This document shows positions 4,933 through 38,037 of a stretch of DNA of 64,000 nucleotides, piece after piece (positions within the stretch are counted from its first letter, which is position 1; every line of letters starts with the position of its first letter). Under the pieces are notes generated by a model. That model saw nothing but the letters and a program-made list of their open reading frames with translations. It did no database searches and had not been told where the DNA came from. The DNA is from Antedon mediterranea (Eukaryota; Animalia; Echinodermata), in the NCBI RefSeq assembly GCF_964355755.1, contig NC_092673.1, forward strand, positions 35,585,648 to 35,649,647. The letters run 5' to 3'. Both the position numbers and the translations under genes were made by a program.

Positions 4933-5004
4933 AATAAAACGAGATATACTCTATATCATATTACGTATACAGTATATATTTCACCATAAAGTTAAAGAAA
5001 AATA

Positions 5005-5076
5005 GGTTTCGCCAGGGCTTGAACCGGGGACCTTCTGCGTGTTATGCAGACTTGATATCCACTACACTACGAAACC
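5005..5076 (-). pseudogene. tRNA-Val(AAC)-like sequence with mismatches (pseudogene or repeat-borne copy)
   Basis: Revcomp GGTTTCGTAGTGTAGTGG...TCTGC-ATAACAC-GCAGA-AGGTCCCCGGTTCAAGCCCTGGCGAAACC; anticodon AAC; followed by TTTTT. Confidence 0.75.
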
Positions 5077-5290
5077 TCTTACACTAAAAATGTGGGTTAC
5101 AGAAAGTTTTTTAATCCATTTAAATTACAAATAAATATGGTAATAAGCACAAAGCAAAATAAACATGTGTAAAAGTGATAATTACCGATTACACAAAATA
5201 AGTATTTAAAAAAATAATAAAAATAAGATATACTGTGTATAATTATCATATTGCGTATACAGTACTTTTCACCATAAAGTTTAAAAAAAA

Positions 5291-5362
5291 GGTTTCGCCC
5301 GGGCTCGAACCAGGTACCTTCTGCGTGTTAAGCAAATGTGATAACCACTACGCCAAGAGGCC
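5291..5362 (-). pseudogene. Degenerate tRNA-Val(AAC)-like copy, second of a tandem pair ~286 bp apart
   Basis: TAGTGGTTATCAC..TTAACAC..GGTTCGAGCCCGGGCGAAACC; acceptor stem 5' side is broken. Confidence 0.7.
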
Positions 5363-10539: not shown

Positions 10540-13500
10540 ACTGGCGAACTTCAACTGGCATTCCGGTAAACTTTTCGAAATTCCATTGAAATAGTTCCGG
10601 TAAACTTTTCGAAATTCCATTGCCATACTGGTGATCGGAATGTTGTTGTAAACACTTGGACTGTCTAAGAAACATTTCTTCTTTACAAATTCAATCCATT
10701 ATTAAATTTTACAACAGACTAAGAATCTTTTATCCATTATTTTCCTTACATCTGCATACTTTGCTTAATTTGTATAAGCCTCTTGATTGATTTTACATAA
10801 TAATTTTACAATAGCGTTTTCAGGAGTCTGTTCTCACATAATTGCATTGTCATAAGATGTTTAAACCACTTAAAACCATTTATTCACCTTTGTTTTATTG
10901 TTACCCCCCAATTCTTAACTTGTTTCTTTATATTTACGTTCTTGTACTTTTCTGTTTTTACGTAACATTACCAGGCATCTTTTATTACATACTATTGAAT
11001 AAACTGATCACATTATGTATCGTTAGATATTCTCATGGACCCTTTTGACAATATAGATGCATTCCCATTTAATCACATTATTGATAATGAGGAATTCTTG
11101 CATGTCATTCACTATTACTTTTGTGACGATAGAATTGACTTTGATAGATTTAATTCTTTAATTTTTAACCCTTTTGATATTAATTTTAAAGATGTTATTA
11201 ATGACAACGATGCCCAATTATTTTCCGAAAATATTGAATCTTGTGCCTATGAATATATCGATAGTCTTAACAACAAATATTCAACACAAGATTATTCATT
11301 TAGTATCTTTCACTTAAACGCACGCAGTCTTGTTAAACATTTTAACGATATCAATGTATGCGTAGGTGCTATTAACCATGAATTCTCAGCACTATGCTTC
11401 ACCGAAACTTTTTTTAATCATAATACGCCTTTTTCCTTTTATAATATTCCCAATTATAACCTCTTGCATGTTTCATGAGCTGATAGACCAGGAGGAGGCG
11501 TTGCCATTTACCTACACCAGAGATTTAAATATATTCTTCGCCCTGATTTATCATTTATCATTACTAATGGTTCGGAATCTCTTTTCATTGAAATCGATGC
11601 ATAACCCAAAAACATAATCCTTGGAGTAGTATATCGTTTGCCTGAATTATCCATTAACACATTTAATAAAGATATCTCTAATTTAATTGACACCATTAAT
11701 AATGAGAAAAAAACAGCATATATTTCAGGAGACTTTAATATTAACTTGTTAAATTCCAAAACACATAAAGGTACTTCTGATTTTGTTAATACTTTATTTC
11801 AATCAAATTATTATCCTCTTATTTCTAGGCCAACTAGAATTACGCGTAATTCTGCAACTTTAATCGACAATATTTTTTTGTAATAATCTATACGATAACA
11901 TTTCTTCCGGAATTCTATATTCGGACATCTCGGATCACTTTCCTGTTTTCTTGTTAGTACATAAATCAGAACCTCTCCAACACCTGAAACCTAAATCAAA
12001 AATATATATACATAAAAAAAGTCAATGATATTTCAATTTCTGCCTTAAGTAATGATTTGTCAAATGTTGACTGGACTAGTATTTATAACTCCAATAAACC
12101 CAATGAGGCATACGCTTTATTCAACGACATATTTAGTACATTATATAATAACAACATTAAAACCACTCGTTCCAGACGCAATATTCGGAAGGAAAAAAAA
12201 CCTTGGATAACTAAATGCTTAATTAAATCTATCGACAAAAAACACAAATTATATAAAACATTTCTTATATCTAAAAAGCAAAAGGACAAAGATAAATATG
12301 TTAAATATCGAAATGTACTTACCAAAATCCTTCGTACTGCCCAAAAGAATTACTTCAGTGACAAATTTGAATTCCATAAAAATAACATCCAAAAAACCTG
12401 GCAAACAATAAATGGAGTCCTTGGCAAGAAATCTCGTAAACCGTTTCCTTCTCACTTTATTAACAATGACATTGAATTAAATAATCCTCAACAAATTGCA
12501 ACTGAATTCAATAATTATTTTACTAGTATAGGGCCAAATTTAGTTAACAAAATACATGTGTCGGATAATGATACTTCTACCCTACTTCGTCCATGTGTGC
12601 ACTCTCTCTTTCTTAGTCCTGTAACCGAACATGAAGTTGTCAGTATAATACTTTCCCTCAAAGATAATAAATCTCCTGAGTTTGATGGGTTTTCCAATAA
12701 AATTATTAAACGTGTTTCTAATTTTATATGCAAACCCTTAACTCACATTTTTAATACTTCTTTTCAAACCGGTATTTTTCCTGATTCTTTTAAAATAGCT
12801 AAAGTCATCCCTATCTACAAGAAAGAAGATCCTCATCATTTCAATAACTACAGACCAATCTCCCTACTTCCTTGTTTCTCAAAATTAATTGAAAAAATAA
12901 TGCATAATCGAATTTCTTCCTTTTTAACTAAACATAACATTTTATTTAAAGGCCAATATGGTTTCAGGAAAAAGTATTCAACAGATCTTGCTTTATTAGA
13001 TATTTTTGACAAAATTACAATTGCCCTGAGTAAAAATGAGTTTTCTGTTGGCATTTTCCTTGATTTATCTAAGGCCTTCGATACTATTAACCACGATATT
13101 TTAATTCATAAACTTTCAAATTACGGTATCAGAGGCCTTCCTTTAAAACTAATTAAAAGCTACCTTTTCAATCGTGTTCAGTTTACTTCCTTAAATAATT
13201 TTAACTGTTCCTATTCCCGTTTAACCTGTGGTGTTCCCCAAGGATCGATTCTTGGACCACTCTTATTCCTGATTTTTGTTAACGATATACCAAACAGCTC
13301 TAAATTACTAAATTTTATCTTATTTGCTGACGACACAAATACTTTTTTCTCTCATCCTAAATTAAATACCTTGTTTAAAATTGTCAATGATGAGTTACTT
13401 AAAGTTTCAAATTGGCTCAAACACAATAAATTAACTCTTAATACATTCAAAACGAACTATATAATATTTTCTAAACGTAAAATTTCAAATTCTTTAAATG

Positions 13501-14642
13501 AACAAATATACATTGATAATAAAATGATCAAACGAGTTAATGAAACACAATTTTTAGGAGTAACCATAGATGCCTCTCTGACTTAGAAACTACATATAAA
13601 TAAAATCAGTAATCTAGTTTCTAGAAATGTTGGAATATTGAACAAATTAAAACATATCTTCCCTCAAAAAACCTTATTAACCCTTTATAATACTTTAGTT
13701 TTGCCTTACCTTTCTTATGCCAATTTATGTTGGGCAATAACTCTAGATAAATTTAATAAGTTATGCCCCTGGACAAGTCTAGAGAAAACTCAACTTGACC
13801 GCCTTTTTAAACTACAAAAACGTGCACTTCGGATTTGCGCGGGAGAATCATTTAGAGCCCATACAAAATTACTTTTTAAAAGATTTAACGTTTTAAACAT
13901 TTATGATTTAAATAAATTACAAGTTGCCTCATTTATGTACCGTTTATCTAACAATTTACTGCCTTCACATTTTAATGCTTTATTTACAAGAATTGACGAA
14001 CGCCATTCCTATAAAACCCGATCCTCTGTTAACAATTATATCCTTGATAATTTAAATGTTAAGGCTCGACGATTTTCTATGTATTATTTTGGTCCCAAAC
14101 TTTGGACTTCACTCTCAAATGAACTTAAACAGAAATCTTCCTTTTCTAGTTTTAAATCTAATTTCAAACACAACATGGTGTCAGAATATGCTACATAATT
14201 TTTCGCCGATCTTTTATCCTTATTTATTTTGTGGTGATACATGGCATTAAATCCTTCACCCTGGTATTCAATAATCTCCGCTACATTGTATCGTTATACT
14301 TGTTATTATAGCATATTTAATTATATTTCATATTGTACTCTAATTGTTATCATTATCCCTTTTATCATATATTATATAATTGCCTGGTTTATCTTAACTT
14401 CTATAATTTAAATTTTTTAAATTTCTTTATTTTATGTACTTTCACTATTATATATTCATATTTTAGTCTACTCTGTAGCAATGTTAGTATACTTATAGGC
14501 ATACGGGAGTCATGACTTAAAGTTCAGTGAACTTACTGTGACTTCCATCCACCCACATTTAATATATGTTATGTAAATGTAAATGATATATATATATATA
14601 TACAGTATATAAGTGAGTGGAAAAAATAAATAAACGAAACGA
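10540..14642 (+). mobile_element. CR1/L2-group LINE, 5'-truncated and inactivated
   Basis: Candidate TSD AACTATTTA at 10531-10539 and 14643-14651; AATAAA plus (GAAAC)n tail; EN+RT coding region. Confidence 0.85.
11035..14198 (+). pseudogene. LINE ORF2 (APE endonuclease + reverse transcriptase) broken by stops and a frameshift
   Basis: FHLNARSL, FTETF, GDFNIN, TLIDNIF, YRPISLL, GVPQGSILGP, FADDT; stops at 11476, 11602, 11881 and 13584; frameshift near 12000. Confidence 0.93.
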
Positions 14643-14900: not shown

Positions 14901-15868
14901 TTCAGTAATTTGCCTTCAGTAGATCCGGAAGGATGATTCCTTCAATTAAGAAGACTGAGCGTCATAATAAATCATTTCTTCCGTGTGCAATCAGGCAATT
15001 ACAACAAGCAATTTAAAAGATAACTTGAGACGTTTTATATTTTATTCTTTATATAGTATTTTAATATTTATACTGTTCATAATGTTTTATACATAGCATA
15101 TTTTCTTATATATTATCTTATCCATTGTATAGTATTGTATGTTTTTAACTGTTGTTATTTTTATTGTTTTTATTTTGCATGAATAAGTGAATTTTTAAAG
15201 TAAATAAGTGTAAACACATATCAATTTATATATTATAAACATCATGGGAAAAACAATCTATTATTTAATGGTCTATTTATTAAAGACACTTGCTATTAAA
15301 AGCATTATTGTTTATCATGAACTTGTGCAATATATGCATATGTACATGATTTGCAATTATTAGAAAAACATGACATGAATTCCTAAGACCCAGCATCAAC
15401 ACAGGAATGATTATTATTATTGACATTCATTAAGTGGTGTAGCAAAAATGTCACCAAACTTTGTCACTTTTCTCAGACTTCCGATCCATTATCAGCTACA
15501 TAATTTTTACATTTTTTTTTTGCATATAAAAATTTTTCCTGTGTTTTTTCATTATACTGTTAAAATCTTAAACGTATCCCATAGCAACGACCAGGCCGAA
15601 TAAGAACAATAGGCCTACCATTACTGGGGTATTTCCAAAATCTTCCACGATGCATTGAACCACATAATATTCATCTATTGTAAATTTCCATATGACCAGA
15701 CATATAAAAGCACACGCCTAGCATTCAATGGGTCGTAGTTTATGGTTGTAGTAAATATTGGCACCTTTTTGTTGGTGTACGTTTTTATTATTTGAATTTA
15801 ACTATAGAGGTACAGTAGTTTTATAGTAATAATTTTATTTAATAAGCGCTAGTAGTATATAAGGGAAT

Positions 15869-16115
15869 ACAGACCCGAATGAAAGGTCATACCCCCAGGG
15901 CAGGAGTATTCCAGACCCGAATAGAAGGTCATACCCCCGGGGTATATTTCATATTTCTATTGTTTAATTTCCAGGTATTGTAATAATAATTAGTGAAAGG
16001 TCACTCTTTGTACCAGACCGGAAAGGAATGTCATATCCCCAGGGTATATATTATTTTCTATTGTTTAATTTCCTGTTATTGTAATATTAATTAGCGAAAG
16101 GTCATTCTTTGTTAG
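15869..16115 (+). repeat. Subterminal repeats (CAGACCCGAA..AAGGTCATACCCCC; GAAAGGTCA), mirrored at ~30156-30402
   Basis: Three CAGACC(C/G)GAA units and a ~105-bp imperfect tandem duplication just inside the terminus. Confidence 0.85.
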
Positions 16116-16416
16116 AGAAGGGGGTTTGTTATTTTGGCGGGGTTTTCGTTTTGGCCTGGGTTAAAATATATTAGTGAAGGTAGTTCTTTGTTTGAGGATT
16201 GCTATTGTTATTTTTAGGCGGTTTGACCATTGCATAGGTCTCTTTTGTTTAGTATTTCCTAATTTCTTTTGTTCATTGTTCTTTTTGTTTGGTACAATAG
16301 TTTTGTTTTTTATATTTTAGAGCCGTTTCTCTTTAGACATTGTAAGAAGAGGGACTGCTTTTTGTGACCTTTCCAGTTGTTTCGTCTATTTTATCGTAGA
16401 GTTACAGTATTTCGCT

Positions 16417-16968
16417 ATGTCTGGAAGTATAGATTTTTCGTTAGGTAGCTGTGTAGATACAGTTATAATTATTAGCGATGATGAGGAGACTGTTGTTACA
16501 GGTAACGATATCGGTGATCGGTACATGCGGACCAATGAGGGTGTACCCGCCGGTGTTGATGAAGGAGATGAGAGGGGTAGCCGGGCTACAAGTTGTATAT
16601 TTACGTACGTAGATGAGGTGGAGAGAGAATTTTTATTGAAATTGGAATATTTAGCCAGAGAAGTGTTTGTTTCTCAAATGTTAAACATGTGTTGGATGTT
16701 AAGTAAAGCGGCTTGTTATGGTTGCGAATTTGATAGGCCTGGTCAAAAAGATCATGACTTCTGTTTAATGAAATCTCCAGAAGAACAGATTGATTATTTT
16801 TATCGGGAGGTTCTGGATAAAGAGTATGTTACAGACGATACCGTGTACAGCGAGATGAATAAGTACGAGGAATATTCATTACCACGGTATAGACATTTTG
16901 TTTACTTTCTCGTAAATACCTTGAGTAATTCAGAGAACCTGTATAAGTTATTGTGTGAGGATATCTAA
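16417..16968 (+). CDS. Hypothetical 183-aa protein with acidic N-terminus and CxxC-x9-H-x2-C putative Zn-binding motif
   Basis: Open ATG..TAA frame in AT-rich DNA; CYGCEFDRPGQKDHDFC; identical mirror copy. Confidence 0.75.
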   Translation: MSGSIDFSLGSCVDTVIIISDDEETVVTGNDIGDRYMRTNEGVPAGVDEGDERGSRATSCIFTYVDEVEREFLLKLEYLAREVFVSQMLNMCWMLSKAACYGCEFDRPGQKDHDFCLMKSPEEQIDYFYREVLDKEYVTDDTVYSEMNKYEEYSLPRYRHFVYFLVNTLSNSENLYKLLCEDI

Positions 16969-17171
16969 AACGTGTTTCGCACGTGCCACGGAAAAACGAT
17001 TGACCGGAAAACAAACAGTTAACAATGCTTTAAGCCGCACGCGTTGTAGGGAGACAATTGATAGGAAAAACAATTAACAACGCTTTAGGCTAATTACTTT
17101 TAAAAAGGTACTTCCGTACTCAACTGTATATATATCGGAGCTGATTCAAACGCAGTTTTAAAGTACCAACG

Positions 17172-18053
17172 ATGACTACCTCCTCGAAGTTATTGGATCC
17201 TAGAACATTTTTCAACGGTCAAACAAACGATTTGAGTAAAGCAGCGAAGCCGTCAACAAGTAAAAAATCATTTCACTCTGCCTCAGGAATTAGCGCCATG
17301 GATTATGCCGAAATGACCGGTGGTGAACCAAAGATTCCAATAACTTCAACGAATCGGATTTTTCTGTCTGAAAAACGCCATGTAGTGGCCCAGCGCTGGG
17401 GTGAAGTTGTTTATGTATGCCTTAGAGAATTTTATCAAACGGAAGAAAATGGTGCCTTCAAACCTGGACCTCTAGGTATTAATTTACCCGTTCTGCTGTG
17501 GCAAAAACTTTTTACCAATATTGATTTAATTCTTCAAGCCCTAGCCGACTTGCAAAGAGACATTAACTTGGTGGAAGCAGTAAGAATCCCACTTTCGGAC
17601 ATACTACATGTGGTAGTTAGTAGCTGGAAAGAAGAGCAGTTTGTATGTATTCGCCATTGTTACCAGGCCGAAGAAGGAGGCGAGTTTAAACCCGGCAAAA
17701 AAGGTATAAACCTTCCAAAGAGACAGTGGTACAAGTTAATTGAACAACACGGTGAAATTCAAAAGATGATTGAAGAGGTTGATAATGATAATGCGGTTAC
17801 CGTCGATGGTGGTGGTGACGAAAACGATAACGGAGGACGTTTATTCAATTCAGAGCAACAATTGCTATCCCCTGATGGGTTATCTGTGCAAAAGATAACA
17901 GGGGAAAATTTAGATTGTGATTACCTTCAACTTCTTGATAAAGGAACAGCCGATACATTGTTTAAAAAATGTGAGGAAGAGATTGACTATTTTACCGGTG
18001 ATCTTGCAAAGGTGAAAGTGTACGGAAAGTGGTTTAATATTCCTAGAAAACAG
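17172..18053 (+). CDS. Exon 1 of PC4-PC4-ALKBH2 fusion gene (two PC4/Sub1 domains plus AlkB lid)
   Basis: VCLREFY..FKPGPLGINL...W and VCIRHCY..FKPGKKGINL..QW resemble PC4 IDIREYW..MKPGRKGISL..QW; EEEIDYFTG..VKVYGKW..IPRKQ; donor CAG|GTTAGT; TATA-like run at ~17127. Confidence 0.92.
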
Positions 18054-18272
18054 GTTAGTTCCATTATGTTTTTATCCGTGGTTTTGTATTAATGACTTGT
18101 TAATTACTTGTAGGCCTATATCGTTTCCTTTGTTTTTCTTTATTTACCGCTGGGTAGCTATATGTGTAATTTACTCTTTTACTGTAAATGATTTTATTTG
18201 GGCGTGTTCATTTACATCTCGCCAAATAAGATTCTTAAATTACTATGTAATGTATGGTTTTCCCCTCTGTAG

Positions 18273-18415
18273 GTTTCGTTTGGCGATTCGGGCTTAACTT
18301 ACAAATATTCAGGCAATACAGTACCAGCTTTACCGTGGCCACCATTCCTGAAAGATCTCCGCGATCTTTTAAAAACGGTTACAGGACATTACTTCAATTT
18401 TGTCTTGGTCAATCG
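18273..18415 (+). CDS. ALKBH2: Exon 2 of PC4-PC4-ALKBH2 fusion
   Basis: Acceptor TTTTCCCCTCTGTAG; VSFGDSGLTYKYSGNTVPALPWPPFLKDLRDLLKTVTGHYFNFVLVNR; donor CG|GTAAAT; this frame is not in the ORF track. Confidence 0.92.
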
Positions 18416-18575
18416 GTAAATATTCTTGTTTATTATTTTGTTTGTTTTAATTCTATTATGCAAGTGTTATTTTACTTACATACATCCCCCCTCCCCCAAT
18501 GGATAATTGGGTGGTTTTTTTTAATCTCATGTTAAAATACTTTATTTTCTATTGTATTTTGTCGTTACTCTATAG

Positions 18576-18873
18576 ATATGCTACTGGCAGTGATTACATT
18601 GGCGAACACAAAGATGATGAAAAAGACATGAATCACTTTAGTCCAATCGCCTCTGTATCATTGGGGCAAACACGTATGTTTAGATTTCGACATGGTGATG
18701 CGCGAGGTAAGAGTCCCAAAAGAATAATTGAACCAGTAACTGTTGATCTTAAACACGGTACATTATTAATGATGAATTATCCCACTAATGAGTACTGGTA
18801 CCATTCACTGCCTAAAAATCAATCCATCAAGCTACCAAGAATAAATCTTACGTTTAGAGATATTAAAAGATGA
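18576..18873 (+). CDS. ALKBH2: Exon 3 of PC4-PC4-ALKBH2 fusion (2OG-Fe(II) catalytic core); spliced product 440 aa
   Basis: Acceptor CTCTATAG; YIGEHKDDE (HxD), PIASVSLG, WYHSLP, RINLTFR. Confidence 0.94.
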
Positions 18874-21800
18874 GAGAAATTTTACGCAAACATTAGGCCT
18901 AACAGTCTTTAATAGCGATTGCAGATTTCAAGAACATCAACTGTTCATGATCTGTTCTCATATAGTGTAGTAGTACCAGTTAAATTACTTTTGTGATGAT
19001 ATTTCTACAAATGGTTGTATTATTGTATTGAAGTTAATTCACTTAGATATAGGGCTAATTCCATTGATCGTTAATAATAATGTGATTGTTTGTCATTGTG
19101 TGGATAATTATTAACTTTACGAAACAAATAGCTGTATTATTGTATTGAAATTCACTTAGATCTATACCTAATTCCATTGATCGTTAATATTCATGTGATT
19201 GTTTCCCATTGTGTGGATAAAAATTAAATAATCTCTTAAAAGTAAATTGTATTGTATTTCTAATTGTTATAAATACATGTAACAGTTTCTTATGTTTTTA
19301 ACAAGTGTGCAAGTTTTTCTTTAAAGCGTTTTAACCGTTTAGTTAGTAATTTCAAGAGAAACAGGTACTTGAAACGGATAAATGATGTCGTAACGTAGGA
19401 AACGGACTGGTAGATTAAAAGAATCGTTATAGGCCTAATAACACTAATAATAACAAACATATATTTCGTACATGTATCGATAAGTTATCTAAATATGTGT
19501 GATTAATATTATTACAATAAAGACCATGTAGATCTACAGTAGTTTTACTGTAAGTGGTATTGTAAATAAATTTTGAATTCAATGGTGAGAAATAATAGAT
19601 GTCTGCGTATTATTTAATATTACTTTTATCATAATTGCAAACACAGGTCGATCATAATTTGAAGGCAGAAAGACGTTTTGGTTGCCAATTGTATTTTCTT
19701 TACACTTAACACATTTTAACAGAAAAACAGAAAAGCTAGACATTCAACCGGACCCCAAACATTGAAATTTGTTTACAAACAGGTTATTTCCATTAGTTAT
19801 TCTAAGGCCTACTTTTTTTTCTACATGTTTATCTTTCGACTATTTTTTAAAAACTTTTTTTATGAATCTTCCGCTGTTTCGTTAGCAATTTTACAGGCCT
19901 GTGTCTTCGCTCTGTAGCCTTTTAACGGTTCTTTGTAAATGTTCTCTTATTGATGGTTACCTATAGCTCTCTCACATCCCTTAATCTAGCACCATTTTAT
20001 GAAAGATTCCTCAGTAAGGGGTTTATTACTGACGCTAGGTATCATCGACAGGGAATATTAGACAAAACATGACGTCACTATTTTTAAAAGGTTTTCTCAT
20101 TCAAGAACAGCTGACGTCAATGAAGAATACGTTACAACACGATAACTATCGGACAGCAGCAACAAACATCAACCAATCACAAATCTGAGCTACTAGTTAA
20201 ATAATAAATAAACGAAACAAAGACAAAAGAAAAGGAAATACACCAAACAAATCATTTTCGTCTCGAAGTTATATTAACGTAAATTTTTCCTTCACAAAAT
20301 CACAGGAGACGCGTTTAACGTTTCCAATTGTAAAGCAGTTTCAAATTACGTCGCATCATACTGCTAGTACCTTACTGTAAAATATCTACCGATATATATA
20401 TTTTGCTAGTCACTCATCATTTTATTACATCACATTATTCAACTCATCAGGTGTAATATCTTTACACAAATACTTTATATCTTTACTTTTTTTCTTACCA
20501 GCTCATAACAAACACGAATATTACTCTAAAGGATTTATACTCAATGTACCATAACCCCCCCCCCCCCACCTTTTTTTTTAAAGTCTGCATAGCGGCACGA
20601 GAAAACAATTAATAATGGGGATAAAAAGTTTGTCTTACATTGTTATACAGTAACCTGTGTTTTTCTCGGTTTACACCAACTCATTGTTTATAATTATGTA
20701 TGTTAATGTCGATATAGTGTTTCTCTATTACAGTTTATTACCTGTTTATACTCGTAAAGTTTGCAGGCCTCCATGTAGTTGGTATATTTTGTAAAAATTG
20801 TAGTTATGTTTACTTTTTAAAAATCGTTTTATTTGCATTTTATCTCCTCCTGGTTAAAATGAGTGTGATGTTGCTTAAAAAGTTAACAAGTATAACCACT
20901 AAAACGGTTCATTACCTGTAGGAGATCATCAATATTGTAACATGCGGTAAACAATACAAATTAGTTTCACAAATCATTTAAACAATAACACTAACAAATT
21001 ACTGGAATTTAAGAAAATAAAGGTGTACAGATTTTATTTCGATAAAAAAAGTGTACAAAAATAACTTTACAAAAAATGTACAGAATAAATTAACAAAAAA
21101 AAAAAAATTAATTCTTATAAAGGTGTACAGTGTACATTGGCCAGACATTCTTAAAACGAGGTGTACAGCTTTTATTTAAAAAAAAAGTATACAGAAATAA
21201 TTTTACAAAAAGTGTATAGAATAAATTTACAAAAAAAGTTCACACATTAAACTCATGCTTATAAAAGTGTACATGTCGATGTGTACATGTGACGTGGCAT
21301 TACCATTAAGAAACAAATACAAACCAAACATTTAACAGCTAAAACAGCATAGCGATCGTTTTCGTACGAAAAACAATACCTCCAGCAGGTATATCAACTT
21401 TAGTATTTTAAGTATAGGGCCTACACTTTACAAACACACACACCCTCTTGAATTGTAGGTACAGGCCTTTTGCCGTTCGTAATTCAAACAGTTCGGAAAA
21501 TTGAAGTTAATATTCTGAGATTTATGTCTATGATTGCATTCTGCCTTCCCTCTCAGGAGCTTAGACTTGTCAACGGTCTAAAAGAGCTGTAATGCAGGAT
21601 GCGAAACATAAAAGTTTATTAATAAACAGTATATTATAACGATAAAGAAACGAATGTACGATACACCAATATAACAGTACAATAACTGATTAACTGAAGA
21701 CTTGAAGTCTACTGTATTCCTACAATCATTCAAGTAGACATTGTTTGCTGAGTGTATGATACTTTCTCCAAAGAGAATTCGAACGATGTGTTTGTTTTTT

Positions 21801-21955
21801 TTTTTCGGACGTGTTTCTACGGTTATCAGAACGGGTCAATAATAATAAAAAAAAAACAAAAAAAAAAACAAAAAACGAACAACCTACTAACTTCCAAACA
21901 ATCAATACCTAAATAAGCTGAACCTAACCCACTAATTAATAATCTCTTCCATACA

Positions 21956-22162
21956 TCAAAATCGGCCGAAAATGATCTGAACATTGAAAAGTGGACACGG
22001 TCGTCTGTTCTTCTTATCTGTTGCCACGGCTTGTGATATCCTCGTTGGTGATAAAGCCATGCGGTCTACACACTTATGATGACCACATCGCATAACATGT
22101 TCAGGGAACTTATTTTTCAACTCTCTGATACAATGTTTAAATACAAGTGGACTGGAAACCAT
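21956..22162 (-). other. 68-aa outward-facing ORF of uncertain reality (mirror 24107-24313 +)
   Basis: ATG lies next to the central repeats; CGHHKC...CPL is weakly RING-like. Confidence 0.25.
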
Positions 22163-22180
22163 TTAGGAATAGGGTTTTCT

Positions 22181-22812
22181 AATAATAAAAGTTGTGTAAA
22201 ACTTTAGTTATGGCCAAGGGGAATTGGTCAAGACTTGGAGTAAATGGTCAAAACCGGTGGCAAATGGTCAAGACCGAGAGAAAAATTAATGTACACCATT
22301 TTATAAGTTTATAGTCAATTATTGTGTTAACATTCATTTATGAATAAACCTGTATACGTATTCAATAATAAAAAAAAAGAATAACTTTCTTATGCTTAAT
22401 ATCATGAATAACATATCTTTAGTGGTTAAGGTAATATATTATTTCTCTGTATACTGACGTCACACATAATTATAGATAAAGAGAGACTGTCCATTAATAA
22501 AAGTTGTGTAAAACTTTAGTTATGGTCAAGGGGATTGGTCAAGACTTGAAGTAAATTATCGAGACTTGGAGTAATTGGTCGAGACCGGGGGAAAATGGTC
22601 AAGACAGGGAGAAAAATTAATGTACACAATTTTATAAGTTTATAGTCACTTATTGTGTTAAATTTCATTTATGATTAAACCTGTATACGTATTCAATAAT
22701 AAAAAATTAATATTCCTTCACTTAATATCATGAATAACATATCTTTAGTGGTTAAGGTATTATATTATTTCTCTGTATACTGACCTCACAAATATAGATA
22801 AAGAGAGACTGT
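22181..22812 (+). repeat. ~315-bp tandem duplication containing TGGTCAAGAC-type iterations at ~21-bp spacing (mirror ~23460-24088)
   Basis: TAATAAAAGTTGTGTAAAACTTTAGTTATGG...GAGAGACTGT occurs twice. Confidence 0.92.
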
Positions 22813-23130
22813 AACTAAATGTTTATCAATTATTAGGGTTACAGTGAGAGTTCTATGCAAACATTAAAAGGTCAATTAACGAGCCACCCAACTTAATTAA
22901 GTACCGGTACCTAACAAATGCGCTCAAACTCTATACAGGTTACAACTCTACAAAAGAGGACATTTTATTTTTAAACTAGGGTTAAACATGAAAAAGGTCA
23001 ATTACTTGAACTCTGAACATTGGAAAAAGGGTTGTGTCAATGGACACTTGAACTTTACCTCTATACAAGGACGAATGGACAGTGACAATTTACCATTATT
23101 TTAAACTCTGGTCACAAAAGCATGGGAGTT

Positions 23131-23157
23131 TCAATTTTCGACTTCGTCGAAATTTGA
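23131..23157. other. Apex hairpin of the palindrome
   Basis: TCAATTTTCGAC-TTC-GTCGAAATTTGA: 12-bp stem with 1 mismatch; c-GAA-g loop on the minus strand. Confidence 0.85.
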
Positions 23158-26100
23158 GAGCCCCCCCCCAATAAAACGGTTGACCAGAGTTTATGGTAAA
23201 TTGTCACTGTCCATTCGTACTTGTATAGATGTAAAGTTCAAGTGTCAATTGACACAACCCTTTTTAAGTAATTGACCTTTTTCATGTTTAACCCTAGTTT
23301 AAAAATAAAATGTCCTCTTTTGTAGAGTTGTAACCTGTATAGAGTTTGAGCGCATTTGTTAGGTACCGGTACTTAATTAAGTTGGGTGGCTCGTTAATTG
23401 ACCTTTTAATGTTTGCATAGAACTCTCACTGTAACCCTAATAATTGATAAACATTTAGTTACAGTCTCTCTTTATCTATATTTGTGAGGTCAGTATACAG
23501 AGAAATAATATAATACCTTAACCACTAAAGATATGTTATTCATGATATTAAGTGAAGGAATATTAATTTTTTATTATTGAATACGTATACAGGTTTAATC
23601 ATAAATGAAATTTAACACAATAAGTGACTATAAACTTATAAAATTGTGTACATTAATTTTTCTCCCTGTCTTGACCATTTTCCCCCGGTCTCGACCATTT
23701 ACTCCAAGTCTCGATAATTTACTTCAAGTCTTGACCAATCCCCTTGACCATAACTAAAGTTTTACACAACTTTTATTAATGGACAGTCTCTCTTTATCTA
23801 TATGTGTGACGTCAGTATACAGAGAAATAATATATTACCTTAACCACTAAAGATATGTTATTCATGATATTAAGCATAAGAAAGTTATTCTTTTTTTTTA
23901 TTATTGAATACGTATACAGGTTTATTCATAAATGAATGTTAACACAATAATTGACTATAAACTTATAAAATGGTGTACATTAATTTTTCTCTCGGTCTTG
24001 ACCATTTGCCACCGGTTTTGACCATTTACTCCAAGTCTTGACCAATTCCCCTTGGCCATAACTAAAGTTTTACACAACTTTTATTATTAGAAAACCCTAT
24101 TCCTAAATGGTTTCCAGTCCACTTGTATTTAAACATTGTATCAGAGAGTTGAAAAATAAGTTCCCTGAACATGTTATGCGATGTGGTCATCATAAGTGTG
24201 TAGACCGCATGGCTTTATCACCAACGAGGATATCACAAGCCGTGGCAACAGATAAGAAGAACAGACGACCGTGTCCACTTTTCAATGTTCAGATCATTTT
24301 CGGCCGATTTTGATGTATGGAAGAGATTATTAATTAGTGGGTTAGGTTCAGCTTATTTAGGTATTGATTGTTTGGAAGTTAGTAGGTTGTTCGTTTTTTG
24401 TTTTTTTTTTTGTTTTTTTTTTATTATTATTGACCCGTTCTGATAACCGTAGAAACACGTCCGAAAAAAAAAAACAAACACATCGTTCGAATTCTCTTTG
24501 GAGAAAGTATCATACACTCAGCAAACAATGTCTACTTGAATGATTGTAGGAATACAGTAGACTTCAAGTCTTCAGTTAATCAGTTATTGTACTGTTATAT
24601 TGGTGTATCGTACATTCGTTTCTTTATCGTTATAATATACTGTTTATTAATAAACTTTTATGTTTCGCATCCTGCATTACAGCTCTTTTAGACCGTTGAC
24701 AAGTCTAAGCTCCTGAGAGGGAAGGCAGAATGCAATCATAGACATAAATCTCAGAATATTAACTTCAATTTTCCGAACTGTTTGAATTACGAACGGCAAA
24801 AGGCCTGTACCTACAATTCAAGAGGGTGTGTGTGTTTGTAAAGTGTAGGCCCTATACTTAAAATACTAAAGTTGATATACCTGCTGGAGGTATTGTTTTT
24901 CGTACGAAAACGATCGCTATGCTGTTTTAGCTGTTAAATGTTTGGTTTGTATTTGTTTCTTAATGGTAATGCCACGTCACATGTACACATCGACATGTAC
25001 ACTTTTATAAGCATGAGTTTAATGTGTGAACTTTTTTTGTAAATTTATTCTATACACTTTTTGTAAAATTATTTCTGTATACTTTTTTTTTAAATAAAAG
25101 CTGTACACCTCGTTTTAAGAATGTCTGGCCAATGTACACTGTACACCTTTATAAGAATTAATTTTTTTTTTTTTGTTAATTTATTCTGTACATTTTTTGT
25201 AAAGTTATTTTTGTACACTTTTTTTATCGAAATAAAATCTGTACACCTTTATTTTCTTAAATTCCAGTAATTTGTTAGTGTTATTGTTTAAATGATTTGT
25301 GAAACTAATTTGTATTGTTTACCGCATGTTACAATATTGATGATCTCCTACAGGTAATGAACCGTTTTAGTGGTTATACTTGTTAACTTTTTAAGCAACA
25401 TCACACTCATTTTAACCAGGAGGAGATAAAATGCAAATAAAACGATTTTTAAAAAGTAAACATAACTACAATTTTTACAAAATATACCAACTACATGGAG
25501 GCCTGCAAACTTTACGAGTATAAACAGGTAATAAACTGTAATAGAGAAACACTATATCGACATTAACATACATAATTATAAACAATGAGTTGGTGTAAAC
25601 CGAGAAAAACACAGGTTACTGTATAACAATGTAAGACAAACTTTTTATCCCCATTATTAATTGTTTTCTCGTGCCGCTATGCAGACTTTAAAAAAAAAGG
25701 TGGGGGGGGGGGGGGGTTATGGTACATTGAGTATAAATCCTTTAGAGTAATATTCGTGTTTGTTATGAGCTGGTAAGAAAAAAAGTAAAGATATAAAGTA
25801 TTTGTGTAAAGATATTACACCTGATGAGTTGAATAATGTGATGTAATAAAATGATGAGTGACTAGCAAAATATATATATCGGTAGATATTTTACAGTAAG
25901 GTACTAGCAGTATGATGCGACGTAATTTGAAACTGCTTTACAATTGGAAACGTTAAACGCGTCTCCTGTGATTTTGTGAAGGAAAAATTTACGTTAATAT
26001 AACTTCGAGACGAAAATGATTTGTTTGGTGTATTTCCTTTTCTTTTGTCTTTGTTTCGTTTATTTATTATTTAACTAGTAGCTCAGATTTGTGATTGGTT

Positions 26101-27397
26101 GATGTTTGTTGCTGCTGTCCGATAGTTATCGTGTTGTAACGTATTCTTCATTGACGTCAGCTGTTCTTGAATGAGAAAACCTTTTAAAAATAGTGACGTC
26201 ATGTTTTGTCTAATATTCCCTGTCGATGATACCTAGCGTCAGTAATAAACCCCTTACTGAGGAATCTTTCATAAAATGGTGCTAGATTAAGGGATGTGAG
26301 AGAGCTATAGGTAACCATCAATAAGAGAACATTTACAAAGAACCGTTAAAAGGCTACAGAGCGAAGACACAGGCCTGTAAAATTGCTAACGAAACAGCGG
26401 AAGATTCATAAAAAAAGTTTTTAAAAAATAGTCGAAAGATAAACATGTAGAAAAAAAAGTAGGCCTTAGAATAACTAATGGAAATAACCTGTTTGTAAAC
26501 AAATTTCAATGTTTGGGGTCCGGTTGAATGTCTAGCTTTTCTGTTTTTCTGTTAAAATGTGTTAAGTGTAAAGAAAATACAATTGGCAACCAAAACGTCT
26601 TTCTGCCTTCAAATTATGATCGACCTGTGTTTGCAATTATGATAAAAGTAATATTAAATAATACGCAGACATCTATTATTTCTCACCATTGAATTCAAAA
26701 TTTATTTACAATACCACTTACAGTAAAACTACTGTAGATCTACATGGTCTTTATTGTAATAATATTAATCACACATATTTAGATAACTTATCGATACATG
26801 TACGAAATATATGTTTGTTATTATTAGTGTTATTAGGCCTATAACGATTCTTTTAATCTACCAGTCCGTTTCCTACGTTACGACATCATTTATCCGTTTC
26901 AAGTACCTGTTTCTCTTGAAATTACTAACTAAACGGTTAAAACGCTTTAAAGAAAAACTTGCACACTTGTTAAAAACATAAGAAACTGTTACATGTATTT
27001 ATAACAATTAGAAATACAATACAATTTACTTTTAAGAGATTATTTAATTTTTATCCACACAATGGGAAACAATCACATGAATATTAACGATCAATGGAAT
27101 TAGGTATAGATCTAAGTGAATTTCAATACAATAATACAGCTATTTGTTTCGTAAAGTTAATAATTATCCACACAATGACAAACAATCACATTATTATTAA
27201 CGATCAATGGAATTAGCCCTATATCTAAGTGAATTAACTTCAATACAATAATACAACCATTTGTAGAAATATCATCACAAAAGTAATTTAACTGGTACTA
27301 CTACACTATATGAGAACAGATCATGAACAGTTGATGTTCTTGAAATCTGCAATCGCTATTAAAGACTGTTAGGCCTAATGTTTGCGTAAAATTTCTC

Positions 27398-27695
27398 TCA
27401 TCTTTTAATATCTCTAAACGTAAGATTTATTCTTGGTAGCTTGATGGATTGATTTTTAGGCAGTGAATGGTACCAGTACTCATTAGTGGGATAATTCATC
27501 ATTAATAATGTACCGTGTTTAAGATCAACAGTTACTGGTTCAATTATTCTTTTGGGACTCTTACCTCGCGCATCACCATGTCGAAATCTAAACATACGTG
27601 TTTGCCCCAATGATACAGAGGCGATTGGACTAAAGTGATTCATGTCTTTTTCATCATCTTTGTGTTCGCCAATGTAATCACTGCCAGTAGCATAT
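27398..27695 (-). CDS. ALKBH2: Exon 3 of mirror PC4-PC4-ALKBH2
   Basis: Mirror of 18576-18873; identical translation. Confidence 0.94.
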
Positions 27696-27855
27696 CTATA
27701 GAGTAACGACAAAATACAATAGAAAATAAAGTATTTTAACATGAGATTAAAAAAAACCACCCAATTATCCATTGGGGGAGGGGGGATGTATGTAAGTAAA
27801 ATAACACTTGCATAATAGAATTAAAACAAACAAAATAATAAACAAGAATATTTAC

Positions 27856-27998
27856 CGATTGACCAAGACAAAATTGAAGTAATGTCCTGTAACCGTTTTT
27901 AAAAGATCGCGGAGATCTTTCAGGAATGGTGGCCACGGTAAAGCTGGTACTGTATTGCCTGAATATTTGTAAGTTAAGCCCGAATCGCCAAACGAAAC
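27856..27998 (-). CDS. ALKBH2: Exon 2 of mirror PC4-PC4-ALKBH2
   Basis: Mirror of 18273-18415. Confidence 0.92.
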
Positions 27999-28217
27999 CT
28001 ACAGAGGGGAAAACCATACATTACATAGTAATTTAAGAATCTTATTTGGCGAGATGTAAATGAACACGCCCAAATAAAATCATTTACAGTAAAAGAGTAA
28101 ATTACACATATAGCTACCCAGCGGTAAATAAAGAAAAACAAAGGAAACGATATAGGCCTACAAGTAATTAACAAGTCATTAATACAAAACCACGGATAAA
28201 AACATAATGGAACTAAC

Positions 28218-29099
28218 CTGTTTTCTAGGAATATTAAACCACTTTCCGTACACTTTCACCTTTGCAAGATCACCGGTAAAATAGTCAATCTCTTCCTCAC
28301 ATTTTTTAAACAATGTATCGGCTGTTCCTTTATCAAGAAGTTGAAGGTAATCACAATCTAAATTTTCCCCTGTTATCTTTTGCACAGATAACCCATCAGG
28401 GGATAGCAATTGTTGCTCTGAATTGAATAAACGTCCTCCGTTATCGTTTTCGTCACCACCACCATCGACGGTAACCGCATTATCATTATCAACCTCTTCA
28501 ATCATCTTTTGAATTTCACCGTGTTGTTCAATTAACTTGTACCACTGTCTCTTTGGAAGGTTTATACCTTTTTTGCCGGGTTTAAACTCGCCTCCTTCTT
28601 CGGCCTGGTAACAATGGCGAATACATACAAACTGCTCTTCTTTCCAGCTACTAACTACCACATGTAGTATGTCCGAAAGTGGGATTCTTACTGCTTCCAC
28701 CAAGTTAATGTCTCTTTGCAAGTCGGCTAGGGCTTGAAGAATTAAATCAATATTGGTAAAAAGTTTTTGCCACAGCAGAACGGGTAAATTAATACCTAGA
28801 GGTCCAGGTTTGAAGGCACCATTTTCTTCCGTTTGATAAAATTCTCTAAGGCATACATAAACAACTTCACCCCAGCGCTGGGCCACTACATGGCGTTTTT
28901 CAGACAGAAAAATCCGATTCGTTGAAGTTATTGGAATCTTTGGTTCACCACCGGTCATTTCGGCATAATCCATGGCGCTAATTCCTGAGGCAGAGTGAAA
29001 TGATTTTTTACTTGTTGACGGCTTCGCTGCTTTACTCAAATCGTTTGTTTGACCGTTGAAAAATGTTCTAGGATCCAATAACTTCGAGGAGGTAGTCAT
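28218..29099 (-). CDS. Exon 1 of mirror PC4-PC4-ALKBH2
   Basis: Mirror of 17172-18053; identical translation. Confidence 0.92.
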
Positions 29100-29302
29100 C
29101 GTTGGTACTTTAAAACTGCGTTTGAATCAGCTCCGATATATATACAGTTGAGTACGGAAGTACCTTTTTAAAAGTAATTAGCCTAAAGCGTTGTTAATTG
29201 TTTTTCCTATCAATTGTCTCCCTACAACGCGTGCGGCTTAAAGCATTGTTAACTGTTTGTTTTCCGGTCAATCGTTTTTCCGTGGCACGTGCGAAACACG
29301 TT

Positions 29303-29854
29303 TTAGATATCCTCACACAATAACTTATACAGGTTCTCTGAATTACTCAAGGTATTTACGAGAAAGTAAACAAAATGTCTATACCGTGGTAATGAATATT
29401 CCTCGTACTTATTCATCTCGCTGTACACGGTATCGTCTGTAACATACTCTTTATCCAGAACCTCCCGATAAAAATAATCAATCTGTTCTTCTGGAGATTT
29501 CATTAAACAGAAGTCATGATCTTTTTGACCAGGCCTATCAAATTCGCAACCATAACAAGCCGCTTTACTTAACATCCAACACATGTTTAACATTTGAGAA
29601 ACAAACACTTCTCTGGCTAAATATTCCAATTTCAATAAAAATTCTCTCTCCACCTCATCTACGTACGTAAATATACAACTTGTAGCCCGGCTACCCCTCT
29701 CATCTCCTTCATCAACACCGGCGGGTACACCCTCATTGGTCCGCATGTACCGATCACCGATATCGTTACCTGTAACAACAGTCTCCTCATCATCGCTAAT
29801 AATTATAACTGTATCTACACAGCTACCTAACGAAAAATCTATACTTCCAGACAT
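29303..29854 (-). CDS. Mirror copy of the 183-aa Cys/His protein
   Basis: Identical translation to 16417-16968. Confidence 0.75.
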   Translation of the reverse strand: MSGSIDFSLGSCVDTVIIISDDEETVVTGNDIGDRYMRTNEGVPAGVDEGDERGSRATSCIFTYVDEVEREFLLKLEYLAREVFVSQMLNMCWMLSKAACYGCEFDRPGQKDHDFCLMKSPEEQIDYFYREVLDKEYVTDDTVYSEMNKYEEYSLPRYRHFVYFLVNTLSNSENLYKLLCEDI

Positions 29855-30697
29855 AGCGAAATACTGTAACTCTACGATAAAATAGACGAAACAACTGGAA
29901 AGGTCACAAAAAGCAGTCCCTCTTCTTACAATGTCTAAAGAGAAACGGCTCTAAAATATAAAAAACAAAACTATTGTACCAAACAAAAAGAACAATGAAC
30001 AAAAGAAATTAGGAAATACTAAACAAAAGAGACCTATGCAATGGTCAAACCGCCTAAAAATAACAATAGCAATCCTCAAACAAAGAACTACCTTCACTAA
30101 TATATTTTAACCCAGGCCAAAACGAAAACCCCGCCAAAATAACAAACCCCCTTCTCTAACAAAGAATGACCTTTCGCTAATTAATATTACAATAACAGGA
30201 AATTAAACAATAGAAAATAATATATACCCTGGGGATATGACATTCCTTTCCGGTCTGGTACAAAGAGTGACCTTTCACTAATTATTATTACAATACCTGG
30301 AAATTAAACAATAGAAATATGAAATATACCCCGGGGGTATGACCTTCTATTCGGGTCTGGAATACTCCTGCCCTGGGGGTATGACCTTTCATTCGGGTCT
30401 GTATTCCCTTATATACTACTAGCGCTTTTCTAACAAAATCAACGCGCACACAATAAAAAAATTCTACGTATAGAATTACACACAAAATAAATATACTATA
30501 GCATGAGTGTATCTTGTACGAGATCTTGTACCTCCCTGATTTAACGTATATGTATGTAACGATTCTCTCTGTAAGCACGAAATATATAGTAATTAATACA
30601 TTTTTTCAAGAGAATACATCCCGTAGTGATTTCCAGCCAATTTTCTTACCAATATGGCATGTATAATACGGGTTTTTTCTCAGACGGAATGTTAATA

Positions 30698-31600: not shown

Positions 31601-31610
31601 AAGAAAAATA

Positions 31611-31681
31611 GGTTTCGCCAGGGCTCGAACCGGTTCCTTCTGCGTGTTAAGCAGACTTGACAACCACTACACTACGAAACC
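31611..31681 (-). pseudogene. tRNA-Val(AAC)-like copy
   Basis: Paralog of 5005-5076; anticodon arm TCTGC-TTAACAC-GCAGA. Confidence 0.7.
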
Positions 31682-31902
31682 TACTTACACTAAAAATGTG
31701 GGTTACAGAAAGTTTTTTAATCCATTTAAATTACAAATAAATATGGTAATAAGCACAAAGCAAAATAAACATGTGTAAAAGTGATAATTACCGATTACGC
31801 AAAATAAGTATTTTAAAAAATAATAAAAATAAGATATAGGCCTACTGTGTATAATTATCATATTGCGTATACAGTACTTTTCACTATAAAGTTTTAAAAA
31901 AA

Positions 31903-31974
31903 GCCTTCACCCGGGCTCGAACCAGGTACCTTCTGCGTGTTAAGCAAACGTGATAACCACTACGCCAAGAAGCC
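31903..31974 (-). pseudogene. Degenerate tRNA-Val(AAC)-like copy
   Basis: Paralog of 5291-5362. Confidence 0.65.
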
Positions 31975-33408: not shown

Positions 33409-33556
33409 TAACTACATAACGCTGTGGTGTGTGTCACACATTGTGGCTTTTTAATTAAACAAATTAATTAACAAACAAGCACGAATGTGCAATACTCGGG
33501 GTACAGCGAAAGAAGCTGTATACAGACGTATACAGTTAGAAAGTTAAAGAAAAATA

Positions 33557-33627
33557 GGTTTCGCCAGGGCTCGAACCGGGACCTTCTGCGTGTTAAGCAG
33601 ACTTGACAACCACTACACTACGAAACC
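33557..33627 (-). pseudogene. tRNA-Val(AAC)-like copy
   Basis: Paralog of 5005-5076, 1 nt shorter. Confidence 0.7.
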
Positions 33628-33839
33628 TCTTACATTAAAAATGTGGGTTACAGAAAGTTTTTTAATCCATTTAAATTACAAATAAATGGTAATAAGCACA
33701 AAGCAAAATAAACATGTGTAAAAGTGATAATTACCGATTACACAAAATAAGTATTTTAAAAAATAATAAAAATAAGATATACTCTGTATAATTATCATAT
33801 TGCGTATACAGTACTTTTCACCATAAAGTTAAAAAAAAA

Positions 33840-35962: not shown

Positions 35963-36603
35963 AAAAACAACATACTACAATACTTGCTGTGAGTACATAG
36001 TTACCAACCTGGAAGATCTGAACTGCACGATAGACTCTTCCACTTGGCATAGGGGTACCTAGAGCCCCGTCATGGCTCAGGGACAAACTCGGCGCCTGGG
36101 GCTCGTCAGACGAATCTGGTACGTTTAGGCGGTTTTAGAATGTTTAATTATGGAATGTTCATCAGATTAAAAAAAATATATTGTATTTTTAGAATATTTT
36201 TGTTGAATATGCCATTTTAATGTCACATACAGTACTAGTTCACTTTGAACAAAAATTGTACATGAAGAAAACGAAAAATAGTAAATTGACTTGAAGTCAA
36301 TCGATTTTTGGTTGAATTTAACCGTTTTGTCTTTTTATAATAAAATATGAATATATATAGATTTTCTCAAGGTTATATTTAGCAGGGGCGGACCCAGGGG
36401 TGTTGCCCTAGTGGCCCGAGCAACACCCTTATTTCATACTAAATGTTGTTTCTGCCACAAAATTAAAATTGAGTCCCATTTCATCGTATACAATATCCAT
36501 ATTTATACGTTATAGAAGTCCAGTCTGGAAGAGAATATTTGTAAATAGGCAGAATGCACAGCAGTCCCCATTAGGCCTACTATACCGCGCACAGATACAG
36601 TAA

Positions 36604-37292
36604 CGCCCGTATTCTTAAACCGGACTTTAGTCGTAGTTCGAGCTAAAACTAAAAAAATGACGTCATTTTAATTCATAAACCGAACTTCAACTAAATCGCC
36701 GACTAATTCAGGCCAACCTCGACTAAATCGAGACGGATTTTGATCGATTTTTTTAGTCCTGGAGGGGGCAGACTAAATGGTCGACTAAATGGTTTTTAAA
36801 CGATGTTTATGAAAAACGAAACAGTCATTGAGTTGTTATATTGGCCAGATATTGAAGAATGAAATATCTATTTTATATTAGCTTAATTAAATATACATTG
36901 GTATATGTTATAATAATGAAAATCATCTTTATTTACAACTGTATACAAATTACATAATTTTCTTCGCGCAAGTCCGACTTCAACTACGTCACGCCATAGC
37001 GACAATGGCAGATGCGGAAATTCACCACGCGATGGAATGTTTAGTGGGCCTAGCGCTTTCTTGTCACGCTATGAAGTGCGTGGTTCGTCGCCATCATACT
37101 TTGTTGGGGGCCTAGAAAATATAAAAGTTACCGTACCGCCATGGTTCCTAAATATATTTTGAAGATTTTGTTTGTTGTTAATCGAAAGTACTTCACTGTT
37201 AAATTAATACTGATCTTGTTCTAATAATTAACGATTAAAATTATTTTTCATGTATAGTCCTGATGCGTAAAAAGTGTTGTAAGAAAATGGAA
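36604..37292 (-). mobile_element. Truncated inverted copy of the MITE at 38088-39014
   Basis: ~690-bp inverted match to 38324-39014; preceded by TAA. Confidence 0.8.
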
Positions 37293-38037
37293 GCAGGGAG
37301 ATGTATCTCTCCTGATGAGGTACAAAAGGAGGCCAACACACACTGTGTTTGGGAAAAACCTGTCATATGGGTCGTGGAACTGTTCATTTATTTAATTATG
37401 TTCAATTATTGCGTATTTTCCATAATTTAAGGCCAAATCATAATTTTTCGTATAGTTTTGTTTTTCCGTTCTTTCTGAAAATTTCCTATAATTACTTTCT
37501 TTGTTTTATATTTATTATTTATTGTACAGTTTATAGTGGATAAATGAAAATGAATTTTGAAAATTGTGGTTTTAATTAACTGCTGACTCATTTAGCATTT
37601 AATTCGAAATAGTCATAAAGTAAGTTACAGAGTTGCGAGGCATTTTATTATTTTTTTTATGTTAGCTTAATTGGTAAAATTGGTAAAAGAAGTAATGCTG
37701 CCGGCAACGAATTTAACGACCTTCACAACCAAAATATTTCTTTGTAACAAAATTTATTTTAAATGGAACACTACAAAAAGAATCCTCCGCTTCATCACTG
37801 CATGAATACCTAATAACCAGACAAGAACGTATCTTTGTTGTCATATCACGCAATCCATTTTACAACAATGTAGTATATAAATAATAACATTTTGATTGAA
37901 TAGTAAGGAATTAGCTACAGTGTTGACTTTGAATAAACCATTGGTAATTTAGTGAAAATCCAATATGAACTTGTGTTATAATACAAACAAAATTATTCAA
38001 AGAAACGCTCTACTACACATGAGAAATGAGATATATA

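Follow-up and report, generated by a model that had tools for sequence, protein, structure and literature searches.

Plant RNA-virus replicases carry AlkB domains, so that a parasite coupling an AlkB dealkylase to its replication proteins has a precedent, in a case where the domain acts on RNA and belongs to another AlkB clade. Two PC4-fold units packed in one chain are likewise known, from Pur-alpha (repeats I–II), Whirly, and MRP1/2. Maverick/Polinton elements are marked by a 6-bp target-site duplication, a terminal tandem repeat of 1–3 bp, and terminal inverted repeats (TIRs), as laid out in passages of PMC4196379 and PMC10748475, and TIR lengths of 100–1,500 bp are cited. Those of nematodes carry captured host genes, among them proteases and kinases (Widen et al, 2023, as cited in a passage of PMC11131425). 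Adintoviruses encode a protein termed MOSUB, which adjoins an ITR on a map in the supplement of PMC8502044, where it is named once.

Here, a window of 64,000 nucleotides from Antedon mediterranea (contig NC_092673.1, positions 35,585,648 to 35,649,647 of the forward strand) was analyzed, in which one gene encodes two PC4 repeats followed by a complete ALKBH2 domain. The element that carries this gene has the 6-bp duplication, the short tandem terminal repeat, and the inverted arms of Mavericks/Polintons, but lacks their core genes in this copy, and its arms are 7.25 kb long and meet at the center. Like MOSUB in adintoviruses, the fusion gene lies near a terminus, and the tandem PC4 fold is alike; however, the matched MOSUB proteins have only ∼200 aa, too short to include an AlkB domain, whereas the fusion has 440 aa. 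Unlike in Pur-alpha, Whirly, and MRP1/2, the repeats are true PC4 in sequence and are joined to an enzyme. That enzyme, in contrast to the cargo of nematode Mavericks, is a repair enzyme fused to an apparent element protein, and in contrast to the plant RNA viruses, the carrier is a DNA element and the domain derives from what seems to be a young, intron-bearing host ALKBH2.

Each of the parts, and the kind of event that joined them, is known already, but the PC4-PC4-ALKBH2 architecture appears to be undescribed, as the first-pass annotation of the window had supposed. No PC4-AlkB fusion and no Maverick-borne ALKBH2 was found in the literature covered, mostly the main texts of open-access papers. 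Among the best 150 of 7952 matches, only P0001 (from Antedon itself) contained both domain types, and none of the 12 PC4-profile matches among 2902 candidates (lengths 82–475) was a fusion from outside Antedon; others could have been concealed by the use of cluster representatives and by the limits on length. Viral contigs yielded no locus, and metagenome contigs contained one AlkB-only locus at 34%.

Results and Discussion

Structure and product of the fusion gene

Three exons (Table 1) join in frame, 1323 nt yielding 440 aa and a stop codon. Both introns are of the GT...AG type, the second beginning with GT at 18416 and ending with AG at 18575. The product (P0009) is, letter for letter, identical to the RefSeq proteins XP_071948573.1 and XP_071948574.1 of A. 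mediterranea. Two stretches in exon 1 matched the Pfam family PC4 (PF02229; E 7e-24, 83.5 bits versus a gathering score of 25), and exon 3 matched 2OG-FeII_Oxy_2 (E 5e-20). The best solved relative of the AlkB part was human ALKBH2 (E 6.5e-72; ALKBH3, 4e-23). When aligned to the human enzyme, for which the catalytic residue numbering given in a section of PMC9370705 was used, the fusion showed the whole catalytic set (H353-K-D355, H418, and R430-x-N432-x-T434-F-R436), that is, it has all iron and 2-oxoglutarate ligands in common with human and other metazoan ALKBH2 (PDB 3rzg and others). The first-pass annotation had called three in-frame exons, a tandem PC4, and a complete AlkB domain with its HKD, H, and RxNxTFR residues; this structure is confirmed at the DNA level, the splice joints resting on sequence and gene models.

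Table 1. Positions of the element and of the fusion gene within the window.
Feature	Position	Strand	Remark
Target-site duplication, left copy, AGCGCT, 6 bp	15845..15850		Empty allele in run X5 has one copy
Palindromic non-autonomous Maverick-type element, 14,570 bp	15851..30420		Ends AGTAGT...ACTACT
Terminal region: AGT tandem end and internal repeats	15851..16112	+	100-bp direct pair, 15911-16011 / 16013-16112
183-aa ORF with CxxC...H...C cluster	16417..16968	+	Possible zinc site; mirror at 29303-29854, minus strand
Candidate TATA box, TATATATA run	17127..17134	+	∼40 nt 5′ of the fusion ATG; putative, from sequence
Exon 1: variable N-terminus, PC4 repeat 1 (∼aa 59-128), PC4 repeat 2 (∼aa 135-204), acidic linker, start of ALKBH2 domain	17172..18053	+	
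Likely fusion seam: DENDNG motif, then residues like the host ALKBH2 N-terminal tail	17820..17845	+	From sequence comparison
Intron 1, 219 nt, phase 0	18054..18272	+	Q294/V295; acceptor apparently common with host ALKBH2 gene
Exon 2: ALKBH2 nucleotide-recognition lid	18273..18415	+	
Intron 2, 160 nt, phase 2	18416..18575	+	In R342; site is a breakpoint in other ALKBH2 models too
Exon 3: H353-x-D355, H418, R430/R436 catalytic set, stop	18576..18873	+	
Palindrome center: imperfect nested hairpin	23080..23215		Likely turn-around point
Second fusion-gene copy, right arm	27398..29099	-	Identical over 1702/1702 nt
Target-site duplication, right copy, 6 bp	30421..30426		

Of 15 sequencing runs, none was listed as RNA containing the gene, which speaks neither for nor against expression. 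Four sequencing runs were examined for the splice joints. That of intron 1 was present in two of them (X5 and X9, with a single contig apiece); the X9 contig runs upstream into a 268-aa form of ALKBH2 (see below), and the short side of the X5 contig comprises only 20 letters. Run X5 also covers the introns and silent flank and therefore holds DNA. The joint of intron 2 was seen in none of the contigs of the four runs, which, being contigs, cannot show absence. When the whole 440-aa protein was folded from its single sequence, a pLDDT of only 32.6 was obtained. Copies P0003, P0011, and P0015 of the family have ∼35–40 extra N-terminal residues, which resemble Anneissia PC4 proteins; the stretch 17000-17171 of the window has no match to them, and the copy in the window starts at 17172.

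A palindromic Maverick-type element bears the gene in both arms

The fusion gene is present in two identical copies in the window because it sits in the arms of a 14.57-kb palindrome. These arms (∼7.25 kb each) are 99.6% identical over 7255 columns. Three features of Mavericks/Polintons were tested. The target-site duplication (5–8 bp, usually 6) is 6 bp on both sides, with one copy at the empty site; the short terminal tandem repeat (1–3 bp) is AGT, twice at both ends; and terminal inverted repeats are present, the arms being much longer than usual. Neither pPolB nor a retroviral-like integrase was found, only three ORFs of at least 100 aa being present per arm, all of them accounted for, and no gene for a capsid, packaging ATPase, or protease was found among the ORFs of the element. 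A Pfam scan of 20 of the 37 short inner ORFs returned nothing above the cut-off. As no polymerase, integrase, or capsid ORF is present, the element is a non-autonomous derivative. The 183-aa Cys/His ORF (see Table 1) matched no Pfam family above the cut-off and no homolog among 24 candidates, its atlas matches (<0.9) being taken as noise; it was covered in three of the four sequencing runs.

One contig of X5, which stems from another sample of the same organism, passes from the left flank (up to 15850) to the right flank with 29 of the 30 listed letters matching, and thus represents the empty site. In X3, flank and element are joined in one contig, and in X3 and X7, a single contig apiece reaches the element end from a different flank. 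The insertion is therefore real and polymorphic, and probably recent. Together, the termini, the 6-bp duplication, and the empty allele bear out the earlier claim that the gene is element-borne. An assembly artifact as the source of the palindrome was rejected because the flanks differ beyond the duplication and because an empty allele exists; fold-back copying of one element end would be the simplest origin and is the likely one.

A multicopy family separate from the host ALKBH2

The fusion family comprises 17 sequences (19 RefSeq accessions) on seven chromosome-scale contigs. Eight of the 17 are complete, with both PC4 motifs and all catalytic motifs; in the other nine, one PC4 repeat or some of the catalytic residues are missing, although some of these may represent partial models. 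Identical or near-identical pairs were found on the same chromosome (P0009 twice, P0016 twice, P0011/P0017, P0012/P0015, and P0002/P0010), which suggests that the fusion gene usually lies in long inverted arms.

A. mediterranea has, in addition, a separate host ALKBH2 (326/338 aa) without PC4. The alternative named beforehand, namely that the fusion is merely the ordinary single-copy ALKBH2 of the lineage, was rejected on account of the multicopy family and this separate gene. A further ALKBH2 pair of 268 aa (P0006/P0021, corresponding to XP_071944660.1 and XP_071944657.1), the members of which differ by 1 aa and are encoded on one chromosome, also has no PC4. Its first residues resemble the N-terminus of the element-type PC4 proteins of Anneissia (p 0.0005, in a test chosen after the match had been seen); from its sequence, the pair is possibly a second element-borne form.

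Origin of the tandem PC4 part

The fold of the PC4 pair was predicted with an 18-row alignment, the predictor used being one that knows PC4 dimers. The model (pLDDT 91.5, pTM 0.84) shows an intramolecular pair, and the solved structure that matched it best along its full length (model residues 2–148) was Pur-alpha (Z 11.3, rmsd 4.2, 131 aligned, 8% identity), a single-chain PC4-fold dimer. The two repeats are thus predicted to fold together as one pseudo-dimer, in line with the single-chain dimer originally proposed. The best viral match of the pair was the predicted model of MOSUB from a Branchiostoma (lancelet) adintovirus (E 9e-7, TM 0.78, 22% identity), and the tandem fold matched two adintovirus MOSUB models. 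An atlas search returned PC4 clusters at 0.85–0.88, one of them 57% viral, which is a lead only.

In the crinoid Anneissia japonica, single and double PC4 proteins belonging to this family stand alone, and four of the five found are on contigs shorter than 2 kb. An N-terminal motif of these proteins recurs in the longer models from Antedon (p 0.0005), and DENDNG occurs in both the fusion and the unfused Anneissia proteins (p 0.02), past which the fusion turns host-ALKBH2-like (p 0.003); the shuffle tests behind these three values were designed after the alignments had been seen. Because of the MOSUB fold match and the unfused Anneissia relatives, the tandem PC4 is likely the element's own single-stranded DNA-binding protein of the MOSUB type. 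The first-pass notion that PC4 replaces the host N-terminus, therefore, holds only in part: most of the ALKBH2 N-terminus is indeed gone, but the PC4 pair is probably an element protein that gained an enzyme.

The repeats are 30–33% identical to human PC4. The aromatic positions and the arginine of the IRE-type motif are kept in both, whereas repeat 1 has Pro-Leu in place of the Arg-Lys of human PC4, and repeat 2 is without Lys/Arg before its first strand; Anneissia P0117 retains basic residues at both places. As aromatic and basic residues make up the ssDNA-binding surface of PC4, DNA binding by the PC4 pair of the fusion may be weakened. Tandem PC4 also occurs elsewhere: the protein P0190 (200 aa, unnamed; eight cluster members) has two canonical repeats as well.

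Origin of the ALKBH2 part

The AlkB domain of the element is 78% identical to the host domain of the 338-aa protein, 79% to that of the 268-aa form, and 71% to that of Anneissia. In a tree of 10 rows, the crinoid ALKBH2 proteins formed a clade (100/99) in which Anneissia branched outside the Antedon genes (89/88) and the element AlkB was joined by the 268-aa form (78/83); an earlier tree of 24 rows had left the forks of Anneissia, the Antedon host gene, and the 268-aa form open. The alternative clade uniting the 338-aa Antedon protein with Anneissia was not rejected (p-AU 0.129), which makes an older duplication possible. Capture within the Antedon line is, thus, favored by the sequences but not proven.

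The 326- and 338-aa isoforms of the host differ by a 12-aa block that ends exactly at the acceptor of the element's intron 1. Furthermore, among 145 ALKBH2-like matches, six start at residues 341–342 and two end at 341, which is the site of intron 2. Both introns, therefore, look inherited, which argues for capture as DNA. Consistent with the DNA-level capture of a host gene postulated at first pass, the ALKBH2 part, which nests among crinoid genes, was likely taken from the host as genomic DNA, the sharing of introns being deduced from protein models.

Enzyme properties and substrate preference

CpG o/e is 0.93 in the arm of the element and 0.87 and 0.88 in two LINEs of the window. DNA methyltransferases make 3-methylcytosine; removal of 5mC is not known for ALKBH2. 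The anti-methylation role that had been suggested for the fusion thus gained no support from the CpG ratios.

ALKBH2 prefers dsDNA according to passages of PMC9370705 and PMC3413135, and is about equally active on ssDNA and dsDNA according to one of PMC2965238. The latter also provides the roles of the F1 hairpin residues. In the fusion, this hairpin (V281, V283, Y284, and G285) is hydrophobic and without the acidic residues of ALKBH3; of the wedge of human ALKBH2, V99, V101, and G103 are kept and F102 is replaced by Tyr, and R198, G204, and K205 are kept as well. The differences from human and other metazoan ALKBH2 comprise the N-terminus, mostly replaced by the two PC4 repeats, the multicopy and mobile nature of the gene, and the RKK241-243 loop, which reads NQS in the element. 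The host genes of crinoids do not have RKK either (SQS in Antedon; MRA); its loss is a crinoid trait and no mark of the element copy.

As the wedge is kept and the RKK change is shared with the host, the enzyme shows no visible adjustment to ssDNA; if there is targeting, it would be due to the PC4 unit. Retention of the dsDNA wedge also means that a role on ssDNA only is not implied. The ssDNA-specific repair claimed at first pass is, thus, not sustained, both by what is published on ALKBH2 and by the residues of the element copy.

Proposed role of the fusion and alternative explanations

We consider it somewhat better than even (roughly 0.55) that a MOSUB-type PC4 protein of the element was fused to a likely captured ALKBH2 and that through the fusion, alkylated bases are repaired on the element's own DNA as it replicates, both the activity and the binding being what we infer from the protein. 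While a helper Maverick copied the element, the PC4 unit would attach to the strand being displaced or to the junction of the panhandle; these are the places at which 1-methyladenine and 3-methylcytosine would form most easily (both arise more readily in ssDNA, as stated in a passage of PMC3413135). The tethered dioxygenase would remove these lesions either while the DNA is single-stranded or soon after re-annealing of the long arms, the latter being conceivable because the wedge for duplex work is kept. The PC4 unit would also stand in for the host enzyme's PCNA link at the host fork (an association described for mammalian ALKBH2 in the same source), which protein-primed replication would leave unused. 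For Polintons, the current model, as given in PMC4196379, includes a single-stranded intermediate. Against the proposed role stand the basic residues lost from each PC4 repeat, the faster divergence of the PC4 part, the nine incomplete models, and the fact that a protein made in trans could act anywhere in the genome.

If the fusion works in this way, alkylation of exposed strands would be a real cost for Mavericks, the single-stranded replication intermediate, so far a model, would gain indirect support, and the AlkB domains of RNA viruses would have a counterpart in a DNA element. As the fusion appears young and both parents are at hand (unfused PC4 in Anneissia, host ALKBH2 in Antedon), its birth would be datable and assayable. 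The range is so far narrow, the named proteins being from one species, which limits generality. Only tentatively, and with odds against it, do we put forward a wider scenario, in which Antedon Mavericks turned a single-stranded DNA-binding protein into a targeted repair enzyme, the first such dealkylase of a DNA mobile element, which would guard displaced strands in protein-primed copying; snap-back palindromes would have spread it, and the 268-aa pair would be a second product of the same capture.

The alternative that survives best, although it is unlikely, regards the enzyme as passenger cargo: ALKBH2 fell in frame behind a PC4 gene, and the copies are uniform through recent spread and recombination instead of selection. 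Copying within arms is evident from the same-chromosome pairs, which are identical or 1 aa apart, and nine of the 17 models are incomplete. However, the ∼22% divergence from the host domain has spared conserved columns. When the latter were defined as those conserved in 33 outgroup proteins, with the state common to the two host genes as reference, the element AlkB was changed at 1 of 58 conserved versus 8 of 52 variable columns (p 0.012), and the one change keeps the outgroup residue. Between two subfamilies, 4 of 199 AlkB residues but 22 of 140 PC4 residues differ (p 4e-6), as does about half of the N-terminus; across the subfamily comparisons, the values were 3–6/199 and 20–24/140, and again about half, the PC4 part diverging faster than AlkB. 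Of 303 variants, the 40 listed (a biased subset) place 8 changes in the 160 nt of intron 2 and 4, of which 3 are silent, in the 606 nt that encode AlkB; the 3′ flank was, like intron 2, more variable than the AlkB exons. These column and variant counts, which differ from a dN/dS test, favor selection over mere homogenization of AlkB, although part of the purifying signal may predate the capture, and recombination among copies could keep AlkB uniform.

An improbable explanation is a benefit at the level of the host, whose genome the extra ALKBH2 would repair in general (removing, for instance, 3-methylcytosine produced by DNA methyltransferases), steered by PC4 to transcription bubbles or forks. 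The dsDNA features of the host enzyme are kept in the fusion, and with the 268-aa pair, the gene has expanded more than once; on the other hand, the insertion is polymorphic, and the family is dispersed and paired as mobile copies are, and is not one domesticated locus.

It is quite improbable that AlkB alone is selected and that the PC4 pair, as a leader in the course of decay or simply a scaffold, no longer targets DNA. The basic residues lost from each repeat would fit such decay, as would the 268-aa form, which manages without PC4, perhaps has an element-type N-terminus (by the post hoc test above), and groups with the fusion at only 78/83. Against this stand the aromatic positions and the IRE-type arginine kept in both repeats, the confidently predicted fold, and the much stronger conservation of the repeats, with 20 of 140 residues changed versus 24 of 47 in the N-terminus (p 1.5e-6).

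Least credible is counter-defense, that is, removal of a host methyl mark (6mA, or 3-methylcytosine left by silencing) from element DNA or RNA, for which an argument can be made from other AlkB family members that erase such marks (in a section of PMC7054317), but the active site follows ALKBH2 and not ALKBH1 or FTO, and the CpG ratio of the arm is close to those of the two LINEs.

Other features of the window

LINE-type endonuclease/reverse-transcriptase ORFs are located at 11008-14198 (+), 42195-44063 (-), 44398-47454 (+), and 47851-48669 (-). Nested inverted repeats of 230–390 nt, foldback-like and without a long ORF, occupy 36602-40243. Five tRNA-Val(AAC)-like copies occur in a dispersed repeat, probably SINE-like, at 5003-5362, 31609-31974, and 33555-33628. 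Toward the right end of the window, all on the minus strand, an LRR array of 177-nt units (55369-57531), a ubiquitin ORF (61233-61583), and a weak death-effector-domain ORF (62719-63369) may belong to a cluster of innate-immune (NLR-like) genes.
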